This document shows positions 39,895-54,148 of a DNA stretch of 64,000 nt, one piece after another. The first letter of the stretch is position 1; each line of letters opens with the position of its first letter. Origin of the DNA: Elusimicrobiota bacterium (lineage in GTDB: Bacteria > Elusimicrobiota > Elusimicrobia > UBA1565 > UBA9628); contig JAGWUP010000002.1 in the NCBI GenBank assembly GCA_028868375.1, positions 25,841-89,840 of the forward strand, given 5' to 3'. A program made the translations under genes and the position numbers. The notes under the pieces were generated by a model. The model ran no database searches. It saw nothing but the letters and a program-made list of their open reading frames with translations, and had not been told where the DNA came from.

Positions 39895-41628
39895 ATGAAA
39901 GCCCTCATCGCCGGCGGCTTGTCGGCGGCGCTGCTCTTGGCGGCGCCGGGACTGCCTCGCCCGGTTTGCGCCGGTTCCCTCGACGCCATCGCAAGCGACG
40001 AAAGCCTGCCGCGGGGCGTTCCCGAGGCGCTAATCCAGACGCCGCCGGTTCAAGCGACGCAGAGTGTTCTCGACCGCCCTGTCTCTCCCATGCCTGGCTT
40101 GGCTGCCGCCCCCGCACCCGCGGCTGCCGACGTCCAGCCTGCCACGCGGCCTGTCGCGGCCTCCCCTCGGAGTTTCGGCGTTCTCCAGGGGCTGGCTTCG
40201 CGCGTCTTTTTGGGAAGGAGCGGCGGGAACGTTCAGTCGCGGGGACTAGGGTCATGGCGCCGATTGTTCGACGGGGGATGGGCAGGACCCGGCGCTGCCC
40301 CAGCCGTCAACTCGGCGTCGATGGAGATGCGCGGCAAACGCATCGTCATCGTGGGGGCCGGAACGCCGGCCAAGCGGCCGTTCCTGGAAAAGGCCCGGCA
40401 GCTCGGCGTCCGGGTCATACTGGTCGACAAGGGCTTATCCGGTTTGCCGCGGCTCTTTGATTGGGCGCGGGTTCATCTGCTGGGCCTGCCCTCGCGCGAC
40501 CATTGGGCGCGCGGCCTCGTTTCCGAGCTCGTCGACGTCGATCTCAGCGCCGGCTCGCCGGAAGCCGACGAGCGCGCTGCCGCGGCCCTGCGGCGCTCGG
40601 CCCGAAAGCGCGGGCCCTTGGACGGCCTCACCGCGTATTGGGAAGACGATCTCATCGACGCGGCCAGGATCGCCCAGGCATTGGGGCTGAGGTATCATTC
40701 CGTCGAGGCGGTCGAGACGGCGCGCAGCAAGCACCGGACCATCGAGCGCTTGAGCGCCGCGGGCGTGCTCCCGCGGCGAGTGAGCTTCAAGATCGAGTCG
40801 AGGCGGGATCTGGAGGGCTTGATTGGCGGGGGGCGGGTCCCGCAGCGCTGGTTTCTCAAGCCGGACGGCGGCGCCGAGGCCCAATTCGACGCCAGCTATA
40901 AGGACGGTCGGGATTTGCTGGCGGCCTATGACGCGCTGGCCGCGCGGCTGGCGGCATCCGACGACACCGTATTCAAGAGCAACCGCACCTTCACGCTGAC
41001 CAACGCCTTGGAGGGTCCGGAGTGGGATTACAACGTCGTTCTCCAGGGCGGGCGCTTCATCGACGGCCGCTTCACCGACAACTGGCCGACGCGGCCGGGC
41101 AGCCGCAAGGCCACCGGCTACTCGCTGCCTTCCCGCGTCCTGACCGAGCCGCTGAAGGGGTCGATCCACCAAATGGTGGTCGACAGCCTCGAAGCCATCG
41201 GCGCGCGCGACGGGGTGTTCCACGTCGAGGGCATCGGCGAGGATTTAGTCGAGATCAACATGCGCCCCGGCGGCAGCTACACCCTGCAGGCCAACGAGGC
41301 CGTCTACGGCGTCAACGAGGCGGAGCTGCTGCTGCGCTTGGCCGCCGGCTTGCCGGTTTCGGTGCCGCGGCTTGAACGCCCGCTGGCCTACCAGGAGGGG
41401 GCTTTCGTCTTCGCCTCGGAGCGCGGGACCATCAAGATGATCGCGTTGACCGCGGCCGCTCGCGCGGCCGGCTTGCATCTGCGAGTCGAGATGACGCCGG
41501 GAAGCGTCATCACCGATCAGAAAAACCGCGTGGCGCTGGTCTACGCCCAGGCCTCCTCGGCCGTTGAGGCCCTGGCCTTGTTGGGCGACGACGCGCGTTC
41601 CCTGCTGGATCTTACGATCATCCCCTAG
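39895..41628 (+). CDS. ATP-grasp-domain protein with signal-like, low-complexity N-terminus (577 aa)
   Basis: KRIVIVGAG..VILVD pre-ATP-grasp region, ARSKHRT, WFLKPDGG and VEINMRPGG motifs. N-terminal MKALIAGGLSAALLLAAPGL plus a Pro/Ala-rich ~140 aa. Confidence 0.7.
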   Translation: MKALIAGGLSAALLLAAPGLPRPVCAGSLDAIASDESLPRGVPEALIQTPPVQATQSVLDRPVSPMPGLAAAPAPAAADVQPATRPVAASPRSFGVLQGLASRVFLGRSGGNVQSRGLGSWRRLFDGGWAGPGAAPAVNSASMEMRGKRIVIVGAGTPAKRPFLEKARQLGVRVILVDKGLSGLPRLFDWARVHLLGLPSRDHWARGLVSELVDVDLSAGSPEADERAAAALRRSARKRGPLDGLTAYWEDDLIDAARIAQALGLRYHSVEAVETARSKHRTIERLSAAGVLPRRVSFKIESRRDLEGLIGGGRVPQRWFLKPDGGAEAQFDASYKDGRDLLAAYDALAARLAASDDTVFKSNRTFTLTNALEGPEWDYNVVLQGGRFIDGRFTDNWPTRPGSRKATGYSLPSRVLTEPLKGSIHQMVVDSLEAIGARDGVFHVEGIGEDLVEINMRPGGSYTLQANEAVYGVNEAELLLRLAAGLPVSVPRLERPLAYQEGAFVFASERGTIKMIALTAAARAAGLHLRVEMTPGSVITDQKNRVALVYAQASSAVEALALLGDDARSLLDLTIIP

Positions 41629-41653
41629 CCGATCCATCGGACCTAGTTCAGCC

Positions 41654-41664
41654 TAGGTCTTTTG
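41654..41664 (+). repeat. intergenic motif TAGGNCCWWWG instance
   Basis: TAGGTCTTTTG. Confidence 0.5.
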
Positions 41665-41676
41665 CCGGAGTATTTT

Positions 41677-41699
41677 TAGGCCCTTCGTTCCTCTTGCGC
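41677..41699 (+). repeat. intergenic motif instance plus CCTCTTGCGC module
   Basis: TAGGCCCTTCG, then CCTCTTGCGC at 41690-41699. Confidence 0.5.
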
Positions 41700-41747
41700 C
41701 GACGCGTCGAGTTATAGCATGCGGCCATGAGAGCGGCGCGGCATGGC

Positions 41748-41776
41748 GGAGGGCGGGTTTCGCCCTCCCTTTTTTT
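41748..41776 (+). terminator. intrinsic terminator
   Basis: GGAGGGCG-GGTTT-CGCCCTCC hairpin (8 bp), followed by C and T7. Lies 120 nt after the ATP-grasp stop. Confidence 0.8.
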
Positions 41777-41805
41777 CGCCTCGCGCCCCTTTCCCGCCGG
41801 AATCG

Positions 41806-41860
41806 CAAAAGATAATAAAATAAGACAATTTACATCTAAATATAATACCTATAGTACTAT
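41806..41860. other. extremely AT-rich tract in a GC-rich genome
   Basis: CAAAAGATAATAAAATAAGACAATTTACATCTAAATATAATACCTATAGTACTAT. Contains GATAAT (41811) and TATAAT (41841). Confidence 0.7.
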
Positions 41861-41973
41861 GGGTCCTAGGCCGGCTTGGGCCCATTGCCGCCTCTCGCGG
41901 GACCAAAGGGACCAGCAAGGCCAGCGCGGGACATTCGCTAGAATCCAGCCGACGCTTGGACAACGAGGCCACC

Positions 41974-44310
41974 ATGAACCGAACATCGAGACTTTGCGCC
42001 GCCGCGATCCTGCTGCTTTCCGCCTCCTTGGCCGCGGCCCAAGGCGCGGCCTTCCGGCCGGCCCCCCTTGCGCCGGCCGTTGAGCGGGCAGGCTTCGAGC
42101 GGATAAACCTTCCGCCGCTTCCGTCCGCCGATAGTTCGCTAGGCTCCACCCGCCTGCCGCCGGGCTTGCCGCAACTGGCGCCTCTGGGACCCAGCGCCAT
42201 CGTCAATGAAGGCTTGCCGCAGCGGCTGCCGGCGCTAAGCGCGGCCGGACAGGGCGCAGCGCGCGCGGGCGCCACGCTCGAGGCGTTGGGCGCCTCGCTG
42301 TCGCTGCCGCGGCCGCAGGCAGCGGCGCCGCAAGCGGAGGCGGATCCCGCCATCCGGGCGATGGACTCCGCTTTCGACGGTGAAGGGACCGGCGGGCAGG
42401 TTCCCGCGGCGGGGGGTTTCGACGGCGGCGGGCTGTCGCGCGGCGATGGCGGCGGCTTTGGCGGCGGAGGGCGCGACCGGGGCGGCTCGGACGGGCCGGG
42501 GGGCTACCACGACGATGGAGACATCGGCGGCATGCACCCCAGGGTCATCGTCATTTTGGACACTCTCAACGAACCCGCCTCCGACGTTCTCGTGGCGCGC
42601 CTGGAGAAGCTTCTTGACAAGGGCGCGCGGGTGCTGTTCGTGACGGCCCGGCCCGACAAGGGCGAGAACTCGGCGGACTCGGTGCTGGTCTCCAAGCTCC
42701 GCGTCCGCCAGAATAATCCAATCGTCGTCGTCAGCTACAACGGGGCGCGCGTCACCGCCCGCAGCTCCCATGCCGACCATCCCCGGCCCTTGCTCAAGGA
42801 CAGCGAAGGCTTTTCGCCGCAGGTGCTCGCCCTATTTCGCAAGACCAATGAGGACTTGAAGAAACGGTTCAAGCTCGATGAGGTGAGGGAGTTCGGCCTG
42901 CCGGAGGTGGAGAGAGCGCAGATCTACGGCATCGAGCTTCCGCAGGATGCCAATTTGGGGCGGGTCGTTTCCTCTTATAATGCGCGGCTTCGAAAGTCTG
43001 AATATCACTATTACCGATTCGAGGGCCAGGAGGTCGGCGGCCGCAAATTCCTGTTCACGCAGGCGACGGCCCTGAGGCTTAACGCCGGGCGAGTCGCGCA
43101 GGGCCTTTTCTCCCAGAATCCTGACTTGCAAGACAGCCTCAAGCGCGAGCAGGTGCTGGTCCTGGGCGACACGGCCAGGGGACGCCGCTTCCTGGACGCC
43201 CTGGCCGAGCAGGAGATCCCGGGCAAGGCCTACTTCGTCCACAACGTCGAGAACGGCGCGCAGCTTGAGGATGCCCTGGGCAAGATCCTCGACAAGGACG
43301 CGCAGCAGACGATCAAGGTGACGCGCCATCAATTGCGCGCCTACGTCGAGTGGCGGCAGCGGCAGGTCTTCGGCCCGCGCCCGGTCTCCGACGGGCGCCC
43401 CGGCGCCGGCAAGCGCGCGAAAGCCCCGGCGGGATTCGGCCGGACCATCCGCGACCTGGCCTTCTTTCGCGGCATCGTCCATTACAACGTGATGATGCGC
43501 ATGAAGAAATTGATGCACAACCATCAGTGGGAGGAGGCTTCGGTTCATGCGGCGGTGGACCTGGCGCGCCGGATGTGGCGCGAGCCCCTGCAGAACGGCC
43601 TGAGGCTGCGGCGCTCCTTGCTGGAGGCGCGCCGCGCGCCGGAATGGAAAGCGTTGGAGGACGGCTTCCTGGAGGCCGAGATCGCCGCGGTCGAGAACTA
43701 TTACGGCCGCAATTTCCCGGGCCAGTGGCCGACGGGCGCCGCGGAGCGCGCGAGAGGCTTGGCCAATATCGCCACGGACGGCAAGAACGGCATCAAGGCC
43801 GAATATCTCTCGCCGGTGGCGCGCTACCAGGTCAACATGCTGCCGGCCGAGGTCCATAGCTATCAGGGCGAGGGCCATTGGATTCTCGAGGCCCACGCCT
43901 ATCGCTCCGGCAAATCGATGCGCCAGGACGAGTTCGACGAATCCATCGAGAGGAATCTCCTGGCCCATGCCTTGCTTCTGGGCTACGCCAAGCAGCAGCC
44001 GGACGGCTCCTGGAAGGTCAATGACCAGCCGGTGCGCCTGCGCGTGATCTTCCATTACGGGACGCAGGATTACGGGACGACGGATCTGCTGACTCCCGGG
44101 CAGGTCGTAGACCAGGCGGCTCAGGTGACCACCCTGATCACCAACATGCTGGCCGATCGTGAGTTCCTGGCTTTCTGGGAGGAGGAACAACGCCTCAATC
44201 GGAGGCTGGACGCCGAGGCCGATCTCAAGGCCGAGAGGGCCAAGGCGCAAGCCCAGCGCCGCAGGCGGGAGCGCTCAAGAAGAAAGCTTCAACCCAAGAA
44301 AACGAAATAG
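41974..44310 (+). CDS. exported 778-aa protein: low-complexity linker + HAD-like module (degenerate motif I) + degenerate PD-(D/E)xK-like module
   Basis: GAGG site 5 nt before the ATG. Signal MNRTSRLCAAAILLLSASLAAAQG. VIVILDTLNE, FVTARP and VLVLGDT motifs. C-terminal region is paralogous to the next gene but lacks its D/D/K residues. Confidence 0.7.
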   Translation: MNRTSRLCAAAILLLSASLAAAQGAAFRPAPLAPAVERAGFERINLPPLPSADSSLGSTRLPPGLPQLAPLGPSAIVNEGLPQRLPALSAAGQGAARAGATLEALGASLSLPRPQAAAPQAEADPAIRAMDSAFDGEGTGGQVPAAGGFDGGGLSRGDGGGFGGGGRDRGGSDGPGGYHDDGDIGGMHPRVIVILDTLNEPASDVLVARLEKLLDKGARVLFVTARPDKGENSADSVLVSKLRVRQNNPIVVVSYNGARVTARSSHADHPRPLLKDSEGFSPQVLALFRKTNEDLKKRFKLDEVREFGLPEVERAQIYGIELPQDANLGRVVSSYNARLRKSEYHYYRFEGQEVGGRKFLFTQATALRLNAGRVAQGLFSQNPDLQDSLKREQVLVLGDTARGRRFLDALAEQEIPGKAYFVHNVENGAQLEDALGKILDKDAQQTIKVTRHQLRAYVEWRQRQVFGPRPVSDGRPGAGKRAKAPAGFGRTIRDLAFFRGIVHYNVMMRMKKLMHNHQWEEASVHAAVDLARRMWREPLQNGLRLRRSLLEARRAPEWKALEDGFLEAEIAAVENYYGRNFPGQWPTGAAERARGLANIATDGKNGIKAEYLSPVARYQVNMLPAEVHSYQGEGHWILEAHAYRSGKSMRQDEFDESIERNLLAHALLLGYAKQQPDGSWKVNDQPVRLRVIFHYGTQDYGTTDLLTPGQVVDQAAQVTTLITNMLADREFLAFWEEEQRLNRRLDAEADLKAERAKAQAQRRRRERSRRKLQPKKTK

Positions 44311-44311
44311 G

Positions 44312-47300
44312 ATGAGCATGAGATCCTGCCTCTTGCTGTTGGCGGCTGTCCTGTCCGGTCCGGCTTGGTCCGCTCCCCTGGTCCGTCCGGAGGTTCCCGC
44401 TGCCGTGGAGGCCGGGACGGCGGTCTTGCCTCGCTTGGCTCCGCTTACCGCCATTCTTGCGCCATCGGCATTGACTGAGGCGGCGCTGACCGGCGGACGG
44501 GCATGGCCGGGGATGGCGGGCTTTGGGCCGGCCGCGGCCATATCTCACGCGGCCAAGCCTTCCGCCGCCCTGCCGGCCTTGCGGATGATGACTTATCCGG
44601 CCGACGCGGGAGAGAGCCTCGGGGAAAGCCCCGAAGCGCGCCCCTTGGCCGCCTCCGGCTTCGACGGCTCCATCTCCCACGGCGGCCTGGAGGCCGGCGG
44701 TTTCCCGGTCAATTTGGGCTTCGAGCCGCCCCATGCCCGCCCGCCGCGAGGCGGCGGCGGCGGGGGGGACGATTCTGGTGCGCCCCGAAACGATGGGGGC
44801 GAGGACGGCCAGCGCTTGTCTTTGGGCTTCTCCACTCCCGCCCAGGTGCGGATGCTCAAGTCCTTCGACAAGAGCGAGGCCTTGTCCGGGGTGGTCAAGT
44901 ACGTCAAGCCCACCGCGCCGGGCTGGAAACCGAGGCCCGCGGAGGTCCAGCCGGACGGCACCGTCAAGCGTTGGCTGACCAGCCGGCAATGGTGGGAGCA
45001 GTACCGGCCCGGCGTCGAGATCGACATCCGCTCCAAGACCGAGAACGTCTTCGGCGAGCCGACGGTGGTGACCAGCAACGTCATCAAGAAGATCCGCGAG
45101 GTCCAGAAAAAGGATCTGGCCGGCATCATACCGGCCAAGGAGCTGAAAGCCCCGATCAGGGAGATTCGCAAGGCCCTCGCTCGAGAATTGGAGGCTCATC
45201 GCAGGTCCTGGGAAAAGAACCCGCGCCGCGCCGCCTCCAGCCAGTACGCGGTGACGCTGGACTCGGAGGTCTGCCTGATCCGCTTCAAGTCCTTCGCCGA
45301 GCTTTACCGCGAGAAGCACGGCGACGTCGCCATGCCCCCGCCGGCGCAGGCGCGCGCTCGTCTGCCGCTCAAGATACGCGCCGAGGGCGCTCTCAGTCCC
45401 CTGGGCCGCTTCCTGCCCAAGGCGATCTTTTTCGACGTCGACGCGCTGGACGGACCGCTTGACGAGGACCAGCTCACCGACATGACCGAGTTGCAGCACT
45501 CCGGCGTGCAGTTCGTGGCCTTCTCGCGCAAGCCCTACGACGCTCCGGGCGGCTTGAAGGAGCGCCTGATCGATCGCATGTCGGTCTATCAATTGAACAT
45601 CCAACTGCCGCAGCATTTCATGGCCGTCACCGACGGGGGCGCGGTGATCTCGGATTTCCCGGAAGGGGGAACGAGGCGCGCCCTGGAGGTGGTTGGCTTT
45701 ACTTCAAACCAGCTCGAGATATTAAGCGACGCCGCCCGCAGGGCCGCCGAGGCGACGGGAATACCAGGGAGGGACCTTCACCCCGTCGCGGCCGGCCTGG
45801 ATGAGGAGCCGGGAAGTCAATCGCTGGCGGTCTCCTTTCAGCTCGATGCCGCCGGCGTCTCCGAGGAGCAAGCGCGGGATTGGTTGTCCCGTTTTAAGCA
45901 GCGCTTGACCGAGCAAGGCTTGCAGGTTCAAATCGAGCTGGGCCGGCAGGCCGACGGCTGGCGCCTGAGCGCTCGCCGCCGCGGCCTGAGCGAGGCGGCG
46001 CGCCGCGCGGTCCAATTGTTGGGCGAGCGCGCGGATTCATTCGTTCCGCCCTCGGCCGTGCTCGATCTCACCGACGATTTGCATGCCAACCCCAACCTCG
46101 ACTTCGCCGCGGCCAGCGGTCTTAAAGGAAGCGAGCGCTTCGAGAACGCCCTGGGCTTGCTGCTGCGCCAGTCGCGATTGAGGCCGCCCTACCGCCTCTC
46201 CGGCTCCGCCACGCGCGTGTCCAGCTTCCGCAGGGACCGCACCCGCTACTGGACCCAGTGGTTGATCCAGGAAGACCAGCTGGAGCAGAACGTCAATTTC
46301 TTCTCCGGGCACATCGTGCACGGCTCCCTGGACTGGGCGATCGCCCGATTGCAGGAGGGCCGGCGGCCCAGCGAGGAGGAGTTTTCGAACTATTTCCGCC
46401 GTATCTGGAAGCAGCGCATGGAGGAGAAGCCGGTGGCGCTCAAGCCCGGCGACGACATGCTGGGCTGGCAGGAGTCGCGCCTGGATGTGGCGCTGGGCAT
46501 GTACCGGGAGGCGCTGGCCGCCCACGACCGCGGCGAGCTCTTCGTCGGCACCGAGATACCGAACTTCATGATCCTGAAGGAGTATGAGCGGCGCACGCAA
46601 AAGTTGAAGGGGGAATACCTGTTCCGGACGATCTTCGACTGGGTGGCCCTGCGCCCCGATCCGGACCACCCCGGCCATGCCAGGCTGGTCGTCTACGACT
46701 TTAAGAGCGGCCCCATGCAGACGGCGCAGAATCTGGCCAAGGACGTCCAGGCATTGACCTACGCCCTGTTCGTCCGCGACCACTGGGTGGGCAGGCCCTT
46801 CCCCTACCCGTATTTCTCCGGCGACCGGGAGTTCTTCATCGACGGCGTCGACGTCGAGTTCGTCTACGGCCCGCAGCGCCAGCCGGCCCTGCTGACCGAT
46901 TGGTCCATCGATCTGGTCCGCGGCATCCTGGTCCGCACCCTCAAGCGCATGGACCATGAGGAAAAGCAGCTCCTGGGCTTGCTGCCGCGAAAAAAGCCCA
47001 AGAATAAGGCCGCCGCCCAGCCCACTGCCGCCGGCCAGGCGCCCGCCGCGCGCAAGCCGCGCCGCCGCGCGCCGCTCTCGCCGGAGCAGCGCCTTGAGCG
47101 CCGGGTGCAAGCCGCCATCGCCAGGGCCCAGGCCCTGGAGCTTCCCGCCGCGCCGGTCTTGCGGCTGAACGGCGCCGAAACCGCGCAGGAGGCCGTGGCC
47201 AAGCTCTCCGACGGCAACGCCGCCGCCACGAGCCTGCTGGAGTTCCTAGCCCGGAAGGATACGAACAACCTGCGCCTGCTCGACTCCGTCCGGCTCTACG

Positions 47301-47422
47301 GCGCGGACCTCGTCTCCGCTTTCGAGCTCTGCCGCGGCAACATCCAGAAGCTGCTCAAGCGCCTGCACGAGGACGCTACGCTTCTGGCCTCCGACGCCCT
47401 CAGGCGTGCGCGAACCAAGTAG
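44312..47422 (+). CDS. exported 1036-aa protein: low-complexity linker + HAD-like module + intact RecB/Cas4-like PD-(D/E)xK module
   Basis: Signal MSMRSCLLLLAAVLSGPAWSAP. FFDVDALDG (45428-45454). GHIVHG (46307-46324), IFDW (Asp 46637), VVYDFKSG (Asp 46697, Lys 46703), QALTY (46748-46762). Confidence 0.7.
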   Translation: MSMRSCLLLLAAVLSGPAWSAPLVRPEVPAAVEAGTAVLPRLAPLTAILAPSALTEAALTGGRAWPGMAGFGPAAAISHAAKPSAALPALRMMTYPADAGESLGESPEARPLAASGFDGSISHGGLEAGGFPVNLGFEPPHARPPRGGGGGGDDSGAPRNDGGEDGQRLSLGFSTPAQVRMLKSFDKSEALSGVVKYVKPTAPGWKPRPAEVQPDGTVKRWLTSRQWWEQYRPGVEIDIRSKTENVFGEPTVVTSNVIKKIREVQKKDLAGIIPAKELKAPIREIRKALARELEAHRRSWEKNPRRAASSQYAVTLDSEVCLIRFKSFAELYREKHGDVAMPPPAQARARLPLKIRAEGALSPLGRFLPKAIFFDVDALDGPLDEDQLTDMTELQHSGVQFVAFSRKPYDAPGGLKERLIDRMSVYQLNIQLPQHFMAVTDGGAVISDFPEGGTRRALEVVGFTSNQLEILSDAARRAAEATGIPGRDLHPVAAGLDEEPGSQSLAVSFQLDAAGVSEEQARDWLSRFKQRLTEQGLQVQIELGRQADGWRLSARRRGLSEAARRAVQLLGERADSFVPPSAVLDLTDDLHANPNLDFAAASGLKGSERFENALGLLLRQSRLRPPYRLSGSATRVSSFRRDRTRYWTQWLIQEDQLEQNVNFFSGHIVHGSLDWAIARLQEGRRPSEEEFSNYFRRIWKQRMEEKPVALKPGDDMLGWQESRLDVALGMYREALAAHDRGELFVGTEIPNFMILKEYERRTQKLKGEYLFRTIFDWVALRPDPDHPGHARLVVYDFKSGPMQTAQNLAKDVQALTYALFVRDHWVGRPFPYPYFSGDREFFIDGVDVEFVYGPQRQPALLTDWSIDLVRGILVRTLKRMDHEEKQLLGLLPRKKPKNKAAAQPTAAGQAPAARKPRRRAPLSPEQRLERRVQAAIARAQALELPAAPVLRLNGAETAQEAVAKLSDGNAAATSLLEFLARKDTNNLRLLDSVRLYGADLVSAFELCRGNIQKLLKRLHEDATLLASDALRRARTK

Positions 47423-47434
47423 GGCGGTCCTTAC

Positions 47435-47445
47435 TAGGTCCAAAG
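47435..47445 (+). repeat. intergenic motif TAGGNCCWWWG instance
   Basis: TAGGTCCAAAG, identical to 53558-53568. Confidence 0.55.
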
Positions 47446-47494
47446 CCTAGCACCCGCGACCCCAAGGGCCTAAGGCAACGGCTTCGGCATTCCA

Positions 47495-47500
47495 TAGAAT
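47495..47500 (+). promoter_or_regulatory. -10 TAGAAT 8 nt before the MFS-like gene ATG
   Basis: TAGAAT at 47495-47500, ATG at 47509. Confidence 0.4.
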
Positions 47501-47508
47501 TGCGCAAC

Positions 47509-49848
47509 ATGAAACCCTCCCCTTTGCGCACTCTCGCATCCACTCTGCTGGCAGCCGCGCTGATCCTGGTCTCGCCCGGCCTGGGCTGCTACCGCGCCGC
47601 GGCCGCCGCGTTGGAGCCCGGCGAGTCCGGAGCGCAGCGGCCACTGCCGATTCATGCGCTTGGCGGAGGCTTGGCATTATCTCAAGCCGCCGCGTTCGCG
47701 GCGATTTCCGGGCCCTCTTCTCTTGGCGGCGCGCTCCAGCTTCCGGGGCTTGCGGCCGGCGCCCTGCTTGGGCCGTCAGCTTTGCCTCGCGCGGCCTCTG
47801 AAGCCGCGCCGATTGCTACGGCGCTCGGCGCCGGGGAGGTCGCGCCCGAAGAGCGAGCTTCTGCGCAAGCGGCCCAAGCCCGTCCGGAAGCTGGGCCGGC
47901 GGCGTTGCAACGGGCGCCGGCAGCCGCGGTCGGAAAGATCGAGAAGGGCGTTGAGGCCGTCCAGGGGCAGGCTGCCGATCCGACGGCCTCCGGCGAGGCG
48001 GTGGCCGGCCAGGGCGAGACTCTCCAAGAAATTTTGCAGGGAGAAGAGGGCGCTTCGGCTTCAGGCGCCGTTAAGGCGCCGCCTGCCGGAGCCTCCGGCA
48101 TCACCGAGGCCGACGCTCTGACGGCGGCGGGCGCAAGCGCGCAGCCTCTCCCGCCGCCCAGAGTCGGGCGGTTCAATGCCGCCGGCGGCCTTATAGACCC
48201 GAAAGATCAGGAGCGCGGGATATGGGGCATGGCCGGCAACAGATTGTTTTCGATGATCGCCCAGCAGATCGGAACGATCGCCGTGTCCGTGATGATCATC
48301 GGGGCGATCGGCCCCGGCAACTTTTTGACTCAGGCCGCGATCGGCGCCGGGGCCAACATCGCCATGGCGCTGCTGGCCGGCAAGGTCGCCGCGAACGTGA
48401 CGCTGAAGAACTATGTTTTAGGCAACATCGCCCTGCGCTCCGCGATCTACGTGGCCAACGGGGTGTTCTGGAAGCTTGGTTGGGTGACCTATGGCCCGCT
48501 GTTGGCATTGACGATACTGAGTTCCTGGCAGTTTCAGTCGATGTTCGTCCTCGACCCCTCCCTTCAAACCGCCATCGTAGGCACCGATAAGGGCAAGCTG
48601 CGCTCGACCGAGGCCCTGATCCGGATGACGACGATCTTGGTGACCGTCGTCGCGGGGCTGGTCGTTGGCCCCGCGATGGTCAAGGACCTCGGATATTTCT
48701 GGACGTTCATTCTGATGGCAGCGATCCAGGCCTTGTCGATTCCTGTCATGAACCGCGCCTTGCCCGACGGCATCGGCGAGACCGGGCCCAGGCCCGGCCT
48801 GGGCAGGGTGTTCAGCGAGTCGGCGGCCTCGTTGGCGGGCTGGCTCTCGCGCCTGAATTGGCGTCAAGCCCCGCTGGCCGCGGCCTTCGCCCTTTCGCTG
48901 GCGACTTTCCTGATTCCGCTGCCCTGGGCGCCGTTTCTGTACTTCTGCCCGGTTCCTCTGATGCTGGTGAGCGGTTTCGCGTTGCTGCGCTCGCGAGGCT
49001 TCCGGGAACTGATCGTTCCCCATCCCATGCTGCGCGCCAGCCTGGCTTTCATCGTGCTCGGCGCCATTATCGAGCTGCCGCTGCGCAATTCCGTGTTCGG
49101 CGTGCTGGCCAAGGATGTCTTCTCCAATAAGGACGCGGCGGCGGCCTATCTGGGCAGCCTGATGGCCGCGTTCTATCTGGGCCAGTTGCCGTCCGGCACC
49201 GGAATCCTCGATCCCAAGCTGAAGGTGTCCTTGGGCCGTTTCAGCGTCTCCTTGCGCGAGATGATGAAATGGGTCGGCGCCGCCAGCGTGGCGGCTTGGA
49301 CGACGTTCGTGCTGATCCCGAAGCCGGCTTTGGCGATGCTCGTTTCCTGGCTCCAGCCCTGGGCCGGGATCGATCTGCTGGTGGCCGCGACCGTGGGGCT
49401 CTATCTGGTGCTGCATCACCTGACGCCGAGGCTCTCGGACTCGACCTGGATGAAGGTGGAGGCCGGAGCCTTGCTATTGATCGGATTGCCGCTGTTTTTC
49501 TGGGGGAGTCCGTGGGCGCTGTATCTGAGCGTGGCCGTCCTGGGTTTCGCGTTAAACGGCTCGCAGCGGATGATCAGCGCCACGTTCTGGTCCGCCTCCA
49601 AGCAGGTCTTGCAAGGCGATCAGTTCGAATACGTCAACGGCATCCGCCAGGCCTTCTTTAATATAGCCATGTCTTTGGGCGTGGCCCTCTACGCCGTGGC
49701 GCAGGCCGTGCCGGCGCTGTTCTCCGGCAATCCCCATGCCCATGCCTTCCCGTTCACGTGGTACGTGCTCGCCGGGCTCTTCGCTCTCTGCGCCGCGCTG
49801 TTCGTGCGGGGCAGCAAGCTTTTCGCCGTCGAGAAGGACAAGAAATAA
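47509..49848 (+). CDS. MFS-like (EntS/MFS_3-like) 12-TM membrane protein with ~240-aa low-complexity N-terminal extension
   Basis: Signal-like MKPSPLRTLASTLLAAALILVSPG, Ala/Gly/Pro-rich region, then about 12 hydrophobic helices starting at NRLFSMIAQQIGTIAV. Confidence 0.7.
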   Translation: MKPSPLRTLASTLLAAALILVSPGLGCYRAAAAALEPGESGAQRPLPIHALGGGLALSQAAAFAAISGPSSLGGALQLPGLAAGALLGPSALPRAASEAAPIATALGAGEVAPEERASAQAAQARPEAGPAALQRAPAAAVGKIEKGVEAVQGQAADPTASGEAVAGQGETLQEILQGEEGASASGAVKAPPAGASGITEADALTAAGASAQPLPPPRVGRFNAAGGLIDPKDQERGIWGMAGNRLFSMIAQQIGTIAVSVMIIGAIGPGNFLTQAAIGAGANIAMALLAGKVAANVTLKNYVLGNIALRSAIYVANGVFWKLGWVTYGPLLALTILSSWQFQSMFVLDPSLQTAIVGTDKGKLRSTEALIRMTTILVTVVAGLVVGPAMVKDLGYFWTFILMAAIQALSIPVMNRALPDGIGETGPRPGLGRVFSESAASLAGWLSRLNWRQAPLAAAFALSLATFLIPLPWAPFLYFCPVPLMLVSGFALLRSRGFRELIVPHPMLRASLAFIVLGAIIELPLRNSVFGVLAKDVFSNKDAAAAYLGSLMAAFYLGQLPSGTGILDPKLKVSLGRFSVSLREMMKWVGAASVAAWTTFVLIPKPALAMLVSWLQPWAGIDLLVAATVGLYLVLHHLTPRLSDSTWMKVEAGALLLIGLPLFFWGSPWALYLSVAVLGFALNGSQRMISATFWSASKQVLQGDQFEYVNGIRQAFFNIAMSLGVALYAVAQAVPALFSGNPHAHAFPFTWYVLAGLFALCAALFVRGSKLFAVEKDKK

Positions 49849-49886
49849 TACAGGCAGATTGCCCATCATGAAATCATTGATCCTTT

Positions 49887-49907
49887 CGCAGCCGTCCGAC
49901 TGGACGG
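49887..49907 (+). repeat. 21-nt perfect direct repeat, copy 1
   Basis: CGCAGCCGTCCGACTGGACGG, identical to 51656-51676. Confidence 0.95.
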
Positions 49908-49954
49908 ATGCCCGGCTTGGCTCGATCCTCGTACCAAAAATCAGGAAAACGGCG

Positions 49955-51571
49955 ATGAGACGCGCGAACTTGCCGATCCAAAGTCTCTTGCTTGCGCTGC
50001 TGCTGGCGATTCCCGCCGGTCGGTCGCGGGCGGCCAACGAAGGCGAATTGCCCGATGTCCCGCGACTGCCGCCGGCAGCCGCCCCCCAGGTGGGGTTCGA
50101 GGGATCGGCGCTCGTCGGCCAGCCGAGCGATGTCGCGCGGGCTCTCGCCGCGCCGCTGAAAGCGGCGCTGGACGTCAAGGCCGCTCCGGCCGCCTCCGCC
50201 CAGTCGGGAGAAGAGCTGCAGCGGGCGTTGCAGCGTCCATTGGCCCCGGTCGATGGACGCTTGCCCTACGCGTCGGTGCGCGCCGGCTTGGGCCTGGTCT
50301 CCTTGCTGAGCGGCGCCGTCTACAGCCAGCCGCCGGCCGGGCCGCGGCTGCTCCATCGGCTGATCGAAGGGCTGCCCTCCGTGCAGACCGTCGTCTCGGA
50401 TTACGACGACACGCTGGCTTTCACCCATGCCCCGCTATCCGAAGAGGCAGTCGATGCGATCCTCGGCGTGCTGCGCGCCGGCAAGTCCTTCGTCATCGCC
50501 AGCAATCGCCAAGCAAGGGTCGAGCCGGGAGACAAGCTGCCGGCGGTGCTGGAAAGCCTCAAGCCGTTGCGCGAACGTTTGTCAGAGTTGACGGACGAGC
50601 AGGTCCGGCGCTTGGTCGTCGTCACCGACGGGGGAGGGGAGATTGATCGCTTCGACCGGAGCGGCGAGCCTCGATCGGTCTACGAGGAGCTTGCGTTCAC
50701 GCCGCAACAGAAAGAGGCGATTGAACGAGCGGGAGGAGTCGTCGTATCCCGATTAAAACGGCTTGGCGCTGAATTGAATGCCCCTCCTAGATTGGCGGAC
50801 TACAACTATAGTTTGGTCTTTAAGGTGGGAACTCCACCGGATGTCGTCCAGAAGGCGGCCGCCATGGAGCAACGGCTGCTGGAGCAGCAGGGCCTGCGCT
50901 TCGAGGTGGAGGCGAGGATGGCCAAGGACCCGAGAAACCCTCCCTATACGACGTTGCGCAAGAACAACAAGGGGCTAGCGGTGCAAATGGCTCTCGGAAT
51001 GCTGGCTGCTGAGGGAGCGGTCGCTCGCGGCAGAAGGGTGCTGGTGCTGGGCGACAGTTTCTACAAGCCTAGAGCGGCGGCGCGGTTGCGCTGGGCTTTT
51101 CCCATCCTGGACCGTTGGGCTCGGCGCTTGAGCGGCCAGCCGCTGCCGCCGATCGGCAACGAGAGCGACAGGAAGATGGCGCTGGGGGTTCCTCGGGCCA
51201 GAGTCGTCAGCGTCGCGCTGACCGCCGATCCCAGGAGCAATGCCCTCGTGGCCGGCCTTTCCGGAGTTGAAAATGCTGATTTGCAAAGAGTGCCGCAGAG
51301 CGGGGATTGGGCCCGGTTCGCCGAGACGGTGAAAGTGTCGCGGTACGGTCCCGCGACCGCGCTGCGCCTGCTGCGGGCCGTCGGCTCCGAATCGGCGCGA
51401 AAGACGGGCGGTTTTTGGGGCCGGCTGGCGCGGGTCCTTTTGACGTTGGCGCTGCTGTTGGGGGCCGCCGTCGTCCTGGCTTTGTTGCTGGGCGCGGCGT
51501 CCCATTGGTTCGGCTTGGGCGGGGCGGGGGCGTCGCTGCCGCCGTTTAATCAGTGGCCGTTCTGGTTGTAA
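49955..51571 (+). CDS. HAD-superfamily phosphatase-like protein with signal peptide and C-terminal TM anchor
   Basis: MRRANLPIQSLLLALLLAIPAG signal. Canonical DxDxT in VVSDYDDTLAF (50399-50413). FVIASNRQ and VLVLGDS motifs. C-terminal LLTLALLLGAAVVLALLLGAA helix. An alternative start at 49868 is possible. Confidence 0.7.
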   Translation: MRRANLPIQSLLLALLLAIPAGRSRAANEGELPDVPRLPPAAAPQVGFEGSALVGQPSDVARALAAPLKAALDVKAAPAASAQSGEELQRALQRPLAPVDGRLPYASVRAGLGLVSLLSGAVYSQPPAGPRLLHRLIEGLPSVQTVVSDYDDTLAFTHAPLSEEAVDAILGVLRAGKSFVIASNRQARVEPGDKLPAVLESLKPLRERLSELTDEQVRRLVVVTDGGGEIDRFDRSGEPRSVYEELAFTPQQKEAIERAGGVVVSRLKRLGAELNAPPRLADYNYSLVFKVGTPPDVVQKAAAMEQRLLEQQGLRFEVEARMAKDPRNPPYTTLRKNNKGLAVQMALGMLAAEGAVARGRRVLVLGDSFYKPRAAARLRWAFPILDRWARRLSGQPLPPIGNESDRKMALGVPRARVVSVALTADPRSNALVAGLSGVENADLQRVPQSGDWARFAETVKVSRYGPATALRLLRAVGSESARKTGGFWGRLARVLLTLALLLGAAVVLALLLGAASHWFGLGGAGASLPPFNQWPFWL

Positions 51572-51603
51572 ATTTCTGGTTGTAAATTCACCGGGAGGAA
51601 GAG

Positions 51604-52305
51604 ATGAAAAGGTTGATCGCATTGGCGCTGATGGGAGCGTGCGCGGCGGCTTCCGCGCAGCCGTCCGACTGGACGGGGGGGACGGGGCGTGAGCTGGCGA
51701 AGCTCGGCGATGGCACGGGGCGGCAGATCGCCGAGCATCAATTGCGCCAGAAGGCGCTCGAGGTTGCGCTGGAGGGAATGGGCGACAGCGCCGGGGTCGG
51801 CGATCAGATCGCTACTTATCTTAAAGAGCACGACGTGGCGGTCGGCTTCGCCGAGCAATCGGAGCTGTCGAAGACCTCCAACGGCACGATCACGCTGAGC
51901 TGGAAGCTTCCCGCCTCGCCGCAGGCCATCGGCCTGCGCGTGGCCTGGGAGGCGTCGGCGATGATGCTTTCGGACATGCCGGTGTGCGCCGAGAGGGCGT
52001 ACATGCGCCGCAGCCTGACCGCGCGGGCGTTTGCCGAGATCGGCGGCGATCTGCAATCGCTGCTCGATCCCCAGTCCGCCTCCGGAGTCCGCGACGAGGA
52101 GCTGGCCGGGCAGCTGAAGATGTGGTTCGGGGCTCCTTACTCCAGCCCGTTGGATCCGTTCGCCACGCGTTTCAAATCCTTGCTGGTCCTAAGAGAAGAG
52201 GCGCGAGGAAACCAGGCGCTGATCAAGGCTTGCCAGCGGGCCGAGGCTCGCTTCCTGCAGTTCCGCAAGGACGAGCTCATCTGGCTGGCGACCTACCCGC
52301 GCTGA
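51604..52305 (+). CDS. hypothetical secreted protein (233 aa)
   Basis: GGGAGGAAG Shine-Dalgarno site. Signal MKRLIALALMGACAAASA. No family recognised. Confidence 0.6.
   Translation: MKRLIALALMGACAAASAQPSDWTGGTGRELAKLGDGTGRQIAEHQLRQKALEVALEGMGDSAGVGDQIATYLKEHDVAVGFAEQSELSKTSNGTITLSWKLPASPQAIGLRVAWEASAMMLSDMPVCAERAYMRRSLTARAFAEIGGDLQSLLDPQSASGVRDEELAGQLKMWFGAPYSSPLDPFATRFKSLLVLREEARGNQALIKACQRAEARFLQFRKDELIWLATYPR
51656..51676 (+). repeat. 21-nt perfect direct repeat, copy 2
   Basis: CGCAGCCGTCCGACTGGACGG. Encodes AQPSDWT at the signal-peptide cleavage region of the 233-aa protein. Confidence 0.95.
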
Positions 52306-52352: not shown

Positions 52353-53045
52353 ATGCCAATCGCCAGGATCGCATCCCTGGCCTTCTTGCCCGAAGGCCCC
52401 GCCGTCGCGCGCGATCCAGCCAGCGGCAGCGCGGCCTTGCGCGCGCAATTGGAGGACGGCAAGCGCTCGACCTTCCTCGTCGCCACCCCCGACCAGCCGG
52501 CGTCTTGGGCGGCCAAGGAGGGCTGGAGCTTCGGGCCGCCGGTACTGTTCGTGCGGCGGCTTGACGAGGAGACGGTGGCCCAAGCGGCTCAGGCGATGGC
52601 CGCCGAGATGGGCGGCTATTGGCTGCGCTACTACAACTTCCCCGGAGCGGGCCTGCCGCAGGCGAGGGCCGCGCGCTCGCGCCGGCCGACCGGGCTGGAG
52701 ATCGTCTCGACCACGGTGACGGAGGCCTATCCTCCGCGCTCCCTGGACGGCTGCGCCGTGGCGCAGGCGGCCGTGGCCGACGGCCGGGAGTTCTCCCTCT
52801 TGTGCGCCACCCCGGCCTGGTTTGCGAGGAGCTTCGAGCAGCTGCGGCTGGATTATTTTTTCGGGCCTTCCGTGCTCTTCGTCTCCAGGCTCAAGCCGAA
52901 GCTCGCGCGGCAGGCCGTCTCGGCCCTGGCCGCGGAGGGCGACCGCTGGCTGTGCCGCTACGACACCCCGCGCCGCACCCTGCCGGAATTGCTCGCCGAT
53001 TTCGCCGCCCGCCACGCCCGTCCCGAAGGGACTAATCGGGCCTAG
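52353..53045 (+). CDS. hypothetical protein with internal two-fold domain duplication (230 aa)
   Basis: TTGGCC-N17-TAGAAT-N6-ATG promoter. Repeats are FLVATP..FGPPVLFVRRL..WLRYYNFP and SLLCATP..FGPSVLFVSRL..WLCRYDTP. Confidence 0.55.
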   Translation: MPIARIASLAFLPEGPAVARDPASGSAALRAQLEDGKRSTFLVATPDQPASWAAKEGWSFGPPVLFVRRLDEETVAQAAQAMAAEMGGYWLRYYNFPGAGLPQARAARSRRPTGLEIVSTTVTEAYPPRSLDGCAVAQAAVADGREFSLLCATPAWFARSFEQLRLDYFFGPSVLFVSRLKPKLARQAVSALAAEGDRWLCRYDTPRRTLPELLADFAARHARPEGTNRA

Positions 53046-53056: not shown

Positions 53057-53147
53057 TTTTGCGGGCGCCAAATGCCCTCTTTTTGAGGGGCCTCTTGTTG
53101 GGCCCGCCTTGGGTCCTTCGACCCGTTCCCAACGCCGCCGCGACCGC

Positions 53148-53153
53148 TATAAT
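53148..53153 (+). promoter_or_regulatory. -10 TATAAT 6 nt before the receiver-1 GTG
   Basis: TATAAT at 53148-53153, GTG at 53160. Weak -35 TTCCCA at 53126-53131. Confidence 0.45.
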
Positions 53154-53159
53154 CATGGC

Positions 53160-53537
53160 GTGACGAACCGATCCCTCTTCATCGTCGAGGACGACCCGGC
53201 CTTCCGGGAGACCTTCGTCGACGCCATGTCCCTGCGCGGCGTCGAGGTCCGTTGCGCCGGCTCCGGCTACGAGGGCCTGCGCGCCCTGCAGACCCTGCGC
53301 CCGAGCGCCATCATCCTCGACGTGCGCCTGCCCGACCTGCACGGCTTCGAGCTGTGCCGGCGCCTCAAGCGCATGGAGGGCCTGCGCAAGACCCCCATCG
53401 TCCTCATCTCCGCCTCGCCCGCCTACAACGATCCGCGCGACCGCACCGAGGGCTACCTTTGCGGGGCCGCGGCCTTCCTCGCCAAGCCCGTCTCCGTCGA
53501 CGCGCTCTGGTCCGAGGTCGGGGCCCTCCTGGCATAG
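53160..53537 (+). CDS. single-domain response regulator (CheY-like receiver) 1
   Basis: FIVEDD acidic pair, ILDVRLPDLHG phospho-Asp, ISAS, LAKP lysine. GTG start 6 nt after TATAAT. Confidence 0.85.
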   Translation: MTNRSLFIVEDDPAFRETFVDAMSLRGVEVRCAGSGYEGLRALQTLRPSAIILDVRLPDLHGFELCRRLKRMEGLRKTPIVLISASPAYNDPRDRTEGYLCGAAAFLAKPVSVDALWSEVGALLA

Positions 53538-53623: not shown

Positions 53624-53761
53624 CGTCCCGCGTTTCGAAAGAGGCGCACTCTGTAGCTCGGGGGATTGGCCCCGGGGTATCCACGATCCGGCCATAACCG
53701 GATGCGAGCCAGGGGGAAGAGCGTTCACGCGCTCTTCCCCTGTTTCGTTATAGAGGAACCT
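53624..53761 (+). ncRNA. candidate structured 5' leader or small RNA upstream of receiver 2
   Basis: TATAAT at 53618-53623, then a GAAA-tetraloop hairpin (53630-53647), GGGG/CCCC hairpin (53661-53673), ATCCGG/CCGGAT hairpin (53686-53703) and the terminator hairpin at 53713-53740. Confidence 0.35.
53713..53750 (+). terminator. terminator/attenuator-like hairpin just upstream of receiver 2
   Basis: 11-bp stem GGGGAAGAGCG/CGCTCTTCCCC with a 6-nt loop, then TGTTTCGTTA. Confidence 0.55.
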
Positions 53762-54148
53762 ATGAAAACAGCGGAATTGTCGATGTTCATCGTCGAGGAC
53801 GACGCGGCCTTCCGCGAGACGTTCATGGACATCATGGCCTTGCGCGGTGTCGATGTCCAGGGCGCCGGCACGGGCGCGGAGGGCTTGCGCCAGCTGCAGG
53901 GCGGCCTGCGGCCGTCCGTGATCGTCTTGGACGTGCAGCTTCCGGACGTCCACGGCTTCGAGCTCTGCCGCCGCCTCAAGCGCATGGAGGCCTTCAAGCG
54001 CACCCCGATCATCCTGCTTTCCGCCTCGGCCCAGTACAGCGACGCGCGCGACCGCGCCGAGGGGCTGCTGGCGGGGGCCTCGCTGTTCTTGGCCAAGCCG
54101 ATCACGATGGATCGGCTGTGGACCGAGATCGGCAGGCTGCTTTCTTGA
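53762..54148 (+). CDS. single-domain response regulator (CheY-like receiver) 2
   Basis: FIVEDD, VLDVQLPDVHG, LSAS and LAKP motifs. About two-thirds identical to receiver 1 by manual alignment. GAGGA Shine-Dalgarno site. Confidence 0.85.
   Translation: MKTAELSMFIVEDDAAFRETFMDIMALRGVDVQGAGTGAEGLRQLQGGLRPSVIVLDVQLPDVHGFELCRRLKRMEAFKRTPIILLSASAQYSDARDRAEGLLAGASLFLAKPITMDRLWTEIGRLLS

Follow-up and report, generated by a model that had tools for sequence, protein, structure and literature searches.

The locus described here raises the question of what, if anything, unites six consecutive genes (termed g1 to g6) whose products combine ATP-grasp ligase, HAD-type phosphatase, PD-(D/E)xK nuclease and MFS transporter domains. 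The genes lie on the plus strand between positions 39895 and 52305 of a 64,000-nucleotide stretch (the window) of contig JAGWUP010000002.1 from an Elusimicrobiota bacterium (assembly GCA_028868375.1). All six open reading frames (ORFs) reported in an original prediction, made from the sequence alone, are present at the same coordinates; its domain and motif calls agree with Pfam, hhalign, Foldseek and our alignments, and the co-occurrence of homologues in other genomes, which it had proposed as a check, was found in related loci. Its statement that the genes fit no known pathway also held, as searches of Pfam, NCBIfam, PADLOC and PDB sequences assigned no characterised pathway to g1-g6, and a literature search with the genome accession, and with Elusimicrobia plus these features, returned nothing relevant to these proteins. 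It is well supported that they belong to a conserved gene cluster that is restricted to Elusimicrobiota, is vertically inherited and encodes proteins with a lineage-specific leader. As to function, we tentatively favor, with a probability of roughly 0.3, a membrane- or envelope-associated breakdown of a phosphodiester polyanion, most likely nucleic acid, together with dephosphorylation and transport.

The g3 protein (44312..47422; coordinates of g1-g6 and their domains all refer to the plus strand) consists of a leader, an N-terminal α/β domain, a HAD-IIB phosphatase domain, a RecB-family PD-(D/E)xK nuclease domain, a basic tail and a C-terminal extension. The leader (44312..44809) has a signal-peptide-like start, followed by an Ala/Pro-rich low-complexity region, the motifs GFDG and FEPP, and a Gly/Asp-rich run. 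The N-terminal α/β domain (44810..45346), delineated from the AlphaFold2 secondary structure, places about 175 residues ahead of the HAD domain; it lacks a counterpart in g2 and gave no Pfam match in 10 orthologues. An ASCH/PUA-like assignment of this domain was considered and rejected, with no Pfam match and an hhalign probability of 0.5% against E. coli YqfB. The Lys/Pro-rich tail and the subsequent helical extension of ~145 residues (46981..47422, around residues 890-1036) end the protein, and the extension occurs in this genome only, being absent from all of the 16 or more homologues.

The nuclease domain of g3 (46205..46882) matches the Pfam family PDDEXK_1 (PF12705) with an E-value of 7.4e-10. 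The AlphaFold2 model of the g3 core, computed with 16 homologues, has a predicted local distance difference test (pLDDT) score of 82 and a predicted template modeling (pTM) score of 0.71. Foldseek comparison of this model against predicted viral structures (BFVD) yielded RecB-family/Cas4-like phage exonucleases, with an E-value of 7e-10 and a TM-score of 0.65 over ~270 columns. The residues Glu748, Asp776, Asp796-Phe-Lys798 and Gln813..Tyr817 are invariant in 10 of 10 loci, and the catalytic D...(D/E)xK and QxxxY motifs are also invariant in an alignment of 17 sequences. As this alignment contains no invariant or near-invariant cysteine, g3 does not belong to the Fe-S nucleases of the Cas4/AddB type.

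The HAD-IIB domain of g3 (45404..46147) carries motif I (FFDVDALDG), motif II (FVAFSRKP) and motif IV (LDLTDD), with DVDAL, Ser405 and TDD as the HAD residues in the window. The DxD of motif I is kept in nine of the 10 loci, the exception being L016 with DMR (related loci are designated L001, L002 and so on), and the Asp of motif IV (Asp589) is likewise kept in nine, the exception being L008. The HAD motifs vary among the loci, whereas those of the nuclease stay unchanged even in the most distant g3 member. Against the PDB, the g3 model is most similar to HAD-IIB enzymes (E-values of 2e-8 to 1e-5). The top matches of the HAD domain are the inosine monophosphate (IMP) 5'-nucleotidases ISN1 of Plasmodium and yeast (E-value of 2e-8), followed by Cof-type hydrolases, trehalose-6-phosphate phosphatases and a phosphomannomutase-like enzyme.

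The adjacent gene g2 (41974..44310) encodes a leader and a low-complexity region with an FDG motif (to 42531), a core (42532-44193) and a Lys/Arg-rich tail. That g2 and g3 are paralogous, as originally predicted, was borne out by hhalign, with a probability of 97% and an E-value of 6e-11 over 460 columns across the HAD and nuclease parts. Motif I of g2 reads DTL and lacks the second (acid/base) Asp. In its nuclease part, an invariant H-x-Y-R replaces (D/E)xK, the first Asp aligns with an Ala, and a nearby Glu is not conserved. The g2 protein gave no Pfam match; its orthologues, found in seven loci, share 43-48% identity. Searches of PDB sequences with the g2 and g3 profiles gave nothing useful. 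Judged by these motifs, g2 is degenerate, whereas g3 retains all of its catalytic residues. As one intact and one degenerate paralogue are always adjacent, with the stop of g2 abutting the start of g3 (44310/44312), g2 is probably the non-catalytic partner of g3 in a heterodimer that has a single set of active sites. Moreover, Lys/Ala/Pro-rich basic tails end both proteins in every locus, and Lys-rich tails of this sort are typical of polyanion binding. In the groundwater contig L006 (744-2984), a g2-like gene is split in the middle of its HAD part into ORFs of 337 and 408 residues, owing to a frameshift or an assembly error, or because the gene is a pseudogene.

With the g3 core profile as query, 17 proteins were recovered from 5.8 billion clusters in a word-indexed search, and an exhaustive HMMER search of 1.84 billion representatives gave 51 family matches at E-values of 1e-3 or below, 35 of them at 1e-30 or below. 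Every named match comes from Elusimicrobia or Elusimicrobiota metagenome-assembled genomes. With full-length g3 as a single query, the genome scan found nothing and the protein search two relatives only, because the low-complexity leader filled the candidate list.

Comparison of the related loci showed a constant core of the cluster, formed by an M28 peptidase gene, g2 and g3, which is found in nine of them. The core stands as M28-g2-g3 only in L002, L006 and L007. In L001 it is followed by a gene for a HAD-MFS fusion, then g5 and g6. The same order occurs in L010, with one gene inserted after g3 and a "giant" gene ahead of M28; this giant protein comprises a leader, an MFS-like 12-helix domain, a middle part of ~500 residues and an ATP-grasp ligase. 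The order in L012 is PrcB_C, giant, M28, g2, g3 and HAD-MFS, and L008 has the same order with 5.7 kb inserted ahead of HAD-MFS. In L013, a PGM1-type ATP-grasp gene, a gene for a 1237-residue membrane protein and an OPT gene precede the core, whereas in L016 the core is followed by a duplicated-domain protein, M48 and S8 peptidases, a receiver, thioredoxin, polA and a rhomboid protease. Apart from the core, L014 has g4 and g5 alone, and L015 has g4 alone. The window, L001, L010 and L012 have the genes for g4 or HAD-MFS, g5 and g6 side by side, and in L008 these genes lie within 6 kb. Both the combination of g4 or HAD-MFS with g5 and g6, and the ATP-grasp gene, are present in about five of the eight informative loci.

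Since the core has the same genomic position in the window as in the distant L016, ahead of the duplicated-domain protein, receiver, thioredoxin, polA and rhomboid genes, the cluster appears to be vertically inherited and not a mobile island. In the window it is reduced, in that M28 is gone, g1 represents only the last module of the giant, and g4 lacks a HAD domain; tblastn found no M28, PrcB or giant N-terminal part elsewhere in the window. A defense system was considered as well and rejected: neither g1-g6 nor the duplicated-domain protein has a PADLOC-DB match at an E-value of 0.01 or below, the G+C content is even and the synteny with polA is kept. A few kilobases from the core in L016 (56-1318 and 2367-3359), there are genes for a 12-helix protein with a faint ATP/ADP-translocase (TLC) match and for an ankyrin-repeat protein, which hint at a host-associated or nucleotide-scavenging lifestyle.

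The second feature common to the cluster is the N-terminal leader, which comprises, in order, a signal-peptide-like start, an Ala/Pro/Val/Gly-rich linker of 100-240 residues, a short helix with [FY]DG or a similar motif at its end, and a Gly/Asn/Asp-rich run. The original prediction had noted a Sec-like start followed by 100-240 Ala/Pro/Gly-rich residues in five of the genes. Scored by a hydrophobic start plus the Ala/Pro/Gly/Ser/Val/Thr/Leu richness of the following 80 residues, g1-g5 are indeed the top five of ~50 coding ORFs in the window (0.71-0.80), the next being an S8 peptidase (0.66). The architecture is kept in orthologues of 40-50% core identity, though the leader sequence drifts, and these N-termini are not a product of chance. 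Among the g3, g2 and M28 families, [FY]DG is found once per leader, 90-185 residues from the start, in 26 of 29 leaders, compared to 0.03 per leader expected from composition. Variants of this motif (W-L-F-D-R-I-K-R-R, L-Y-G-E-K, I-L-Q-G and R-L-F-D-K-L) are carried by the membrane proteins, g1, g5 and the S8 peptidase.

Two classes of leader can be distinguished. Class A has the pattern K/R, 10-14 hydrophobic residues and S/A-P-G-L-x-x-Y-x-A-x-A, and in the cluster is found on g1, g4, the HAD-MFS fusions and the giants. Class B, found on g2, g3, g5 and M28, resembles ordinary signal peptides such as that of the neighboring outer-membrane-like protein (37114-38154). Read from all orthologues, the leaders of g1-g5 have the basic n-region, hydrophobic core of 7-15 residues, helix breaker and small residues at -3/-1 of Sec signals, and are indistinguishable from the signal of the outer-membrane-like protein. 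The possibility that the leaders are left untranslated, by use of internal start codons, was considered and rejected, as there is no conserved Met ahead of the MFS core. Class A leaders also occur on the M48 and S8 peptidases directly 3' of the g3-like gene in L016 (13301-18548), and a looser form (LLCPGPSWGAG … VLGRLFDKL) precedes the catalytic domain of the window S8 peptidase (60590-63040, plus strand) by ~500 residues. As it is shared by S8, M48 and M28 peptidases, the leader is a lineage-wide trait and not one specific to this locus. In both the window genome and L016, a gene for a rhomboid intramembrane protease (window ~57190-58026, plus strand) lies directly 3' of polA and overlaps coaE; the protease is a candidate for processing the leaders.

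The g4 protein (47509..49848) has a class A leader (LVSPGLGCYRAAAA ... LQEILQG; to 48225) and, from 48226 to 49848, an MFS transporter, of which the N-terminal half consists of six helices. It gave no Pfam match. Its AlphaFold2 model has a pLDDT of 63 and 176 PDB matches in Foldseek at E-values of 1e-3 or below, with TM-scores up to 0.72, all of the 50 listed being MFS transporters. Four orthologues share 41-51% identity. In addition, g4 matches the membrane part of the HAD-MFS fusions colinearly (E-value of 7e-8), and is a diverged orthologue of this part without the HAD domain that its relatives carry.

The g5 protein (49955..51571) consists of a leader and low-complexity region, a HAD-IIB phosphatase domain (~50321-51250) with the canonical motif I DYDDTL, and a C-terminal membrane helix (51434-51490). 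A g5 orthologue matches the Pfam family Hydrolase_3 (5e-7), and the family profile of four sequences matches YidA and other Cof-type phosphatases in the PDB at ~1e-3, with 3niw aligned over 22-234. The last gene, g6 (51604..52305), encodes a small protein that has a plain signal peptide and lacks any known domain; the gene is kept 3' of g5 in L001 and L010.

The g1 protein (39895..41628) has a class A leader (residues 1 to ~142; LLLAAPGLPRPVCAG ... RRLFDGG) followed by an ATP-grasp module of the L-amino-acid ligase type. ATPgrasp_N is its sole Pfam match above the cut-off (1.9e-6), with weak ATP-grasp_4 and LAL_C2, and PDB sequence search gave nothing useful. The module is 40-42% identical to the C-terminal module of the giants (1662-1707 residues) in L008, L010 and L012, of which that of L012 matches ATP-grasp_4 (5e-20), ATPgrasp_N (3e-9) and LAL_C2 (4e-6). 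The order of ATPgrasp_N, ATP-grasp and LAL_C2 is the architecture of L-amino-acid ligases, and g1 has it. The residues invariant in all four sequences, namely K-P of the ATP site, E-W-D, and E-x-N-x-R-x-G-G of the Mg site, are retained in g1, which for this reason looks functional. Thus, g1 is a truncated relic in which the leader is joined straight to the last ligase module of a giant MFS-ligase fusion. In NCBIfam, the sole match was that of the ATP-grasp region to PRK02186, "argininosuccinate lyase", which was rejected as an assignment, its score (42.6 bits) being below the cut-off of 625.

The six genes had been described as a locus with its own promoters and terminator and with shared intergenic motifs. 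Between g1 and g2 there are a strong intrinsic-terminator-like hairpin with a T-run (41748..41768, plus strand) and an AT-rich promoter-like stretch (41800-41870), and therefore g1 is a transcription unit apart from g2-g6. The genes g2-g6 are tightly spaced, and a terminator scan found no convincing terminator inside them. Of shared intergenic motifs, only one clear example was found: the g4-g5 spacer (49887..49907, plus strand) repeats exactly a 21-nt stretch of g6 (51656-51676). The spacer copy reads MKSLILSQPSDWT in frame and mirrors the N-terminus of g6 (…ASAQPSDWTGG), and is probably what a deletion has left of a second g6-like gene.

That the genes do not form one six-gene unit is also evident from the gene orders, which show M28-g2-g3 and g4-g5(-g6) to be separable modules. 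It is a real, though less than even, prospect that there is no single system at all, and that two or three independent modules (ATP-grasp; M28-g2-g3; MFS-HAD-g6) with unrelated membrane roles have come together merely because leader-bearing genes cluster. The terminator that cuts g1 off from g2 fits this explanation, as do the loci in which the core stands without g4-g6 (L002, L007 and L016), the isolated g4-g5 of L014 and g4 of L015, and the leader-bearing M48 and S8 peptidases that follow g3 in L016 instead. It sits less easily with the same adjacent order in five of the eight loci with enough flanking sequence, among proteins that are only 40-50% identical, with the tight spacing of g2-g6 without an internal terminator, and with the recurrence of HAD domains in both modules.

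The location of the products is the next step of the question, since all of them had been predicted to act beyond the cytoplasm. In g4, the HAD-MFS fusions and the giant MFS-ATP-grasp proteins, the leader directly precedes the first transmembrane helix (TM1) of a canonical N-in MFS protein. The five g4 orthologues have a motif A loop resembling G-K-V-G-D-x-x-P-L-K-K between TM2 and TM3, and 51 Lys/Arg residues of the five sequences fall on the predicted cytoplasmic loops and tail, compared to one on the opposite side. The giants share the layout of g4 and HAD-MFS, and their ATP-grasp module follows an even number of helices. A transmembrane segment hidden in the low-complexity region, which could have reconciled export with the MFS topology, was considered and rejected: in g4, HAD-MFS and the giants, the stretch from the leader start to TM1 contains no hydrophobic segment. 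As the leader runs straight into TM1 of an N-in protein, its C-terminal end, and with it the HAD domain of HAD-MFS and the ATP-grasp modules, must be cytoplasmic on this predicted topology. An ATP-grasp ligase, moreover, needs cytoplasmic ATP. Export of the polypeptide that follows the g1 and g4 leaders is thus contradicted, and the claim that all products are exported is doubtful.

Several arrangements could account for this topology. It is possible that class B leaders export their cargo and class A leaders do not. Another possibility, by analogy, is that the leader forms a re-entrant anchor of the kind seen in PglC, in which an N-terminal Lys-Arg and a Ser-Pro break of the helix hold both ends in the cytoplasm (PMC6133551). 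The fit is partial: class A leaders have the K/R, the 10-14 hydrophobic residues and S/A-P-G-L, whereas their part after the Pro (xxYxAxA) is weakly hydrophobic. More speculatively, and rather improbably, the leader might be an undescribed targeting or tethering system of Elusimicrobiota that gathers unrelated enzymes (the g2/g3 pair, HAD phosphatases, MFS transporters, an ATP-grasp ligase and M28, M48 and S8 peptidases) at one envelope site and breaks the rule that a signal peptide means export, in which case g2/g3 would be the first membrane-organized RecB-type nuclease-phosphatase machine.

A re-entrant anchor with a tether would also suit an assembly line on the cytoplasmic face that makes and exports a small molecule or a peptide-conjugated metabolite, in which the ligase joins amino acids (as BacD does), a HAD-IIB enzyme dephosphorylates the precursor and the MFS protein exports the product. 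The N-in topology of the MFS proteins speaks for such a scheme by putting into the cytoplasm the leader's C-terminal end as well as the HAD part of HAD-MFS and the ATP-grasp part of the giants; the likeness of class A leaders to PglC's determinants (Lys-Arg, Ser-Pro), the presence of the ligase architecture and the closeness of g5 to Cof/YidA sugar-phosphate phosphatases agree with it. We nevertheless consider it doubtful, as it has no role for a RecB-type nuclease whose catalytic residues are invariant and which bears basic tails. In addition, past the Pro the leader is hardly hydrophobic, in contrast to the PglC helix with its hydrophobic second half, the conserved A-x-A that follows the hydrophobic core resembles a site for signal peptidase, the leader-bearing M28 and S8 peptidases are usually secreted enzymes, and genes of secondary metabolism are not usually inherited vertically beside polA.

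The breakdown of a phosphodiester polyanion is favored because it accounts for the invariant RecB-type site, the three HAD domains, the recurrent HAD-MFS fusion and the nucleotidase-like structural neighbors. In the proposed mechanism, the g2/g3 pair, held by its leaders at the membrane or envelope, would bind a polyanion, most likely nucleic acid, via the basic tails and cut its phosphodiester bonds. The HAD domains of g3 and g5 would then remove the resulting terminal or monoester phosphates, and the MFS protein g4, HAD-fused in most relatives, would move the product across the cytoplasmic membrane, so that the whole might serve nucleoside or phosphate salvage from nucleic acid. The ligase g1 would probably serve an associated peptide or amino-acid ligation step that is dispensable for the nuclease and phosphatase chemistry. 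The IMP 5'-nucleotidase matches of the g3 HAD domain are suggestive of nucleic-acid salvage, and a nearby 2'-deoxyguanosine-II (2'-dG-II) riboswitch, described below, bears on it weakly, as a hint.

Several points weigh against this reading. The best sequence match of g5 is YidA, and most HAD-IIB (Cof-type) enzymes act on sugar phosphates. The reading leaves unexplained the leader itself, the M28 peptidase, g6 and the ATP-grasp ligase, and the two modules occur apart in some genomes. The leaders of g2, g3 and g5 look like true Sec signals, yet the same kind of leader precedes a cytoplasmic MFS N-terminus. To our knowledge, the known secreted scavenging nucleases belong to other folds. Finally, the adjacency of the riboswitch may be a coincidence, as it was not found in 11 related loci.

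The same enzymes could instead turn over or remodel a phosphodiester-linked envelope polymer, teichoic-acid-like or a phosphoglycan, with the PD-(D/E)xK protein as phosphodiesterase, the HAD proteins as phosphomonoesterases, the MFS protein recycling the units, and ATP-grasp and M28 adding and removing amino-acid decorations. Basic tails would bind any polyanion, the HAD-IIB domains are sugar-phosphatase-like, the exported-looking leaders carry Pro/Ala-rich linkers of an envelope-spanning type, and the vertically inherited location resembles that of housekeeping genes. We regard this as unlikely, since the Q..Y motif and the structural neighbors are those of DNA exonucleases, and none of the loci has a glycosyltransferase, polymerase or flippase gene for such a polymer.

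Another way to explain a signal-bearing ATP-grasp enzyme would be delivery of the nuclease, phosphatases, ligase and peptidases as secreted effectors to a host or prey cell, where ATP is present. PD-(D/E)xK domains occur in exported toxins, and the ankyrin-repeat and faintly ATP/ADP-translocase-like genes of L016 could be cited in the same sense. This is very improbable, as the explanation cannot apply to polytopic MFS proteins with the same leader, no secretion-system or immunity genes lie nearby, PADLOC finds nothing, and the cluster is vertically inherited with conserved synteny near polA. The breakdown of a polyanion stays our preferred, if tentative, reading.

The remainder of the window has the appearance of an ordinary chromosome, with a G+C content of ~67% that is even along its length. 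In g1-g6, the G+C content at third codon positions is 0.8-0.97 in the folded parts. In the low-complexity N-termini it is 0.67-0.8; the Ala, Pro and Gly codons there increase G+C at positions 1 and 2. Upstream of the locus lie genes for SMC, a metallophosphoesterase, the outer-membrane-like protein and a β-CASP RNase; downstream are two receivers, thioredoxin, polA, rhomboid, coaE, rho, the S8 peptidase and tRNA-Pro. As originally predicted, a duplicated-domain protein and the two receivers follow the locus. The former (52353..53045, plus strand) is an internally duplicated protein of 230 residues with two similar halves, without a signal peptide or a Pfam match. A homologue of 44% identity lies directly 3' of the g3-like gene in L016 (12540-13199), and the protein may belong to the conserved neighborhood. 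The receivers (53109-53537 and ~53760-54148, plus strand) are tandem paralogous receiver-only response regulators without an output domain and with no kinase nearby; in L016, one receiver holds the same place ahead of thioredoxin-polA.

Between the two receiver genes, with thioredoxin and polA downstream of it and g6 1.3 kb upstream, is the 2'-dG-II purine riboswitch aptamer (53646-53741, plus strand; Rfam RF03165, 73.5 bits compared to a gathering score of 60). A 13-bp terminator-like hairpin lies directly 3' of it. A deoxyguanosine sensor ahead of a receiver-thioredoxin-DNA polymerase I gene string is an unusual arrangement.

The catalytic domains of the cluster all come from well-known superfamilies. 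What is uncharacterised is the set of architectures, which occur only in a single, little-studied phylum and are kept there as part of the core genome. Those undescribed are the fusion of a HAD domain with a RecB-type nuclease as an active/degenerate pair, in fixed partnership with an M28 peptidase, together with the HAD-MFS fusion, the fusion of MFS with an ATP-grasp ligase, and the leader with [FY]DG, all restricted to Elusimicrobiota. The salvage model, if true, would represent a new nucleic-acid feeding route for small-genome, uncultured bacteria. The leader is more unusual, being a textbook-like cleavable signal that nevertheless stands ahead of a cytoplasmic MFS N-terminus and an ATP-dependent ligase, with its motif shared across unrelated enzyme families. 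Resolving this contradiction could reveal a new membrane-anchoring or sorting mechanism, and it bears on the trust placed in signal-peptide predictions for candidate phyla.

Compared to known systems, g3 shares the fold and the E...D...(D/E)xK...QxxxY signature of RecB-family/Cas4-like nucleases (PF12705; AddB, RecB domains and phage exonucleases). It differs from them in lacking the Fe-S cysteine cluster and a helicase or CRISPR context, in its fusion to a HAD-IIB domain, an N-terminal domain, a basic tail and a leader, and in its pairing with a degenerate paralogue. Similarly, g3 and g5 have the Rossmannoid core with a C2B-type cap, DxD nucleophile, Ser/Thr in motif II and acidic motif IV of HAD-IIB (Cof/YidA) enzymes and ISN1. 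The identity is only 10-15%, however, and here the domains are fused to a nuclease or an MFS protein, or anchored by a C-terminal helix, and g2 lacks the acid/base Asp. A functional analogue is polynucleotide kinase-phosphatase, in which a HAD-type 3'-phosphatase domain acts on nucleic-acid ends beside another nucleic-acid enzyme.

Exported HAD acid phosphatases, namely class B AphA and class C e(P4), dephosphorylate nucleotides outside the cytoplasm, and a transporter imports the nucleoside or nicotinamide riboside. The same logic is proposed for g5 with g4. AphA and e(P4), however, belong to another HAD subfamily (DDDD, without a C2B cap), are not fused to MFS proteins and have no nuclease partner, and the location of g5 is only a predicted one. 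In bacilysin biosynthesis, the L-amino-acid ligase BacD is paired with the MFS exporter BacE. The g1 ligase shares the ATPgrasp_N, ATP-grasp and LAL_C2 architecture and the association with an MFS protein, even as a fusion in the relatives; by contrast, there are no warhead-making genes here, and the window copy is a ligase module behind a leader only.

The leader finds its nearest parallels in membrane anchors. ZipA has an N-terminal membrane anchor with a Pro/Gln-rich tether. Similar to PglC (PMC6133551) and ZipA, the leader starts with basic residues and a short hydrophobic helix broken by Ser/Ala-Pro, and its long Pro-rich linker resembles that of ZipA. Compared to both, the segment after the Pro is hardly hydrophobic, the A-x-A site is peptidase-like, and the [FY]DG motif is a feature of the Elusimicrobiota leader without a counterpart in either protein.

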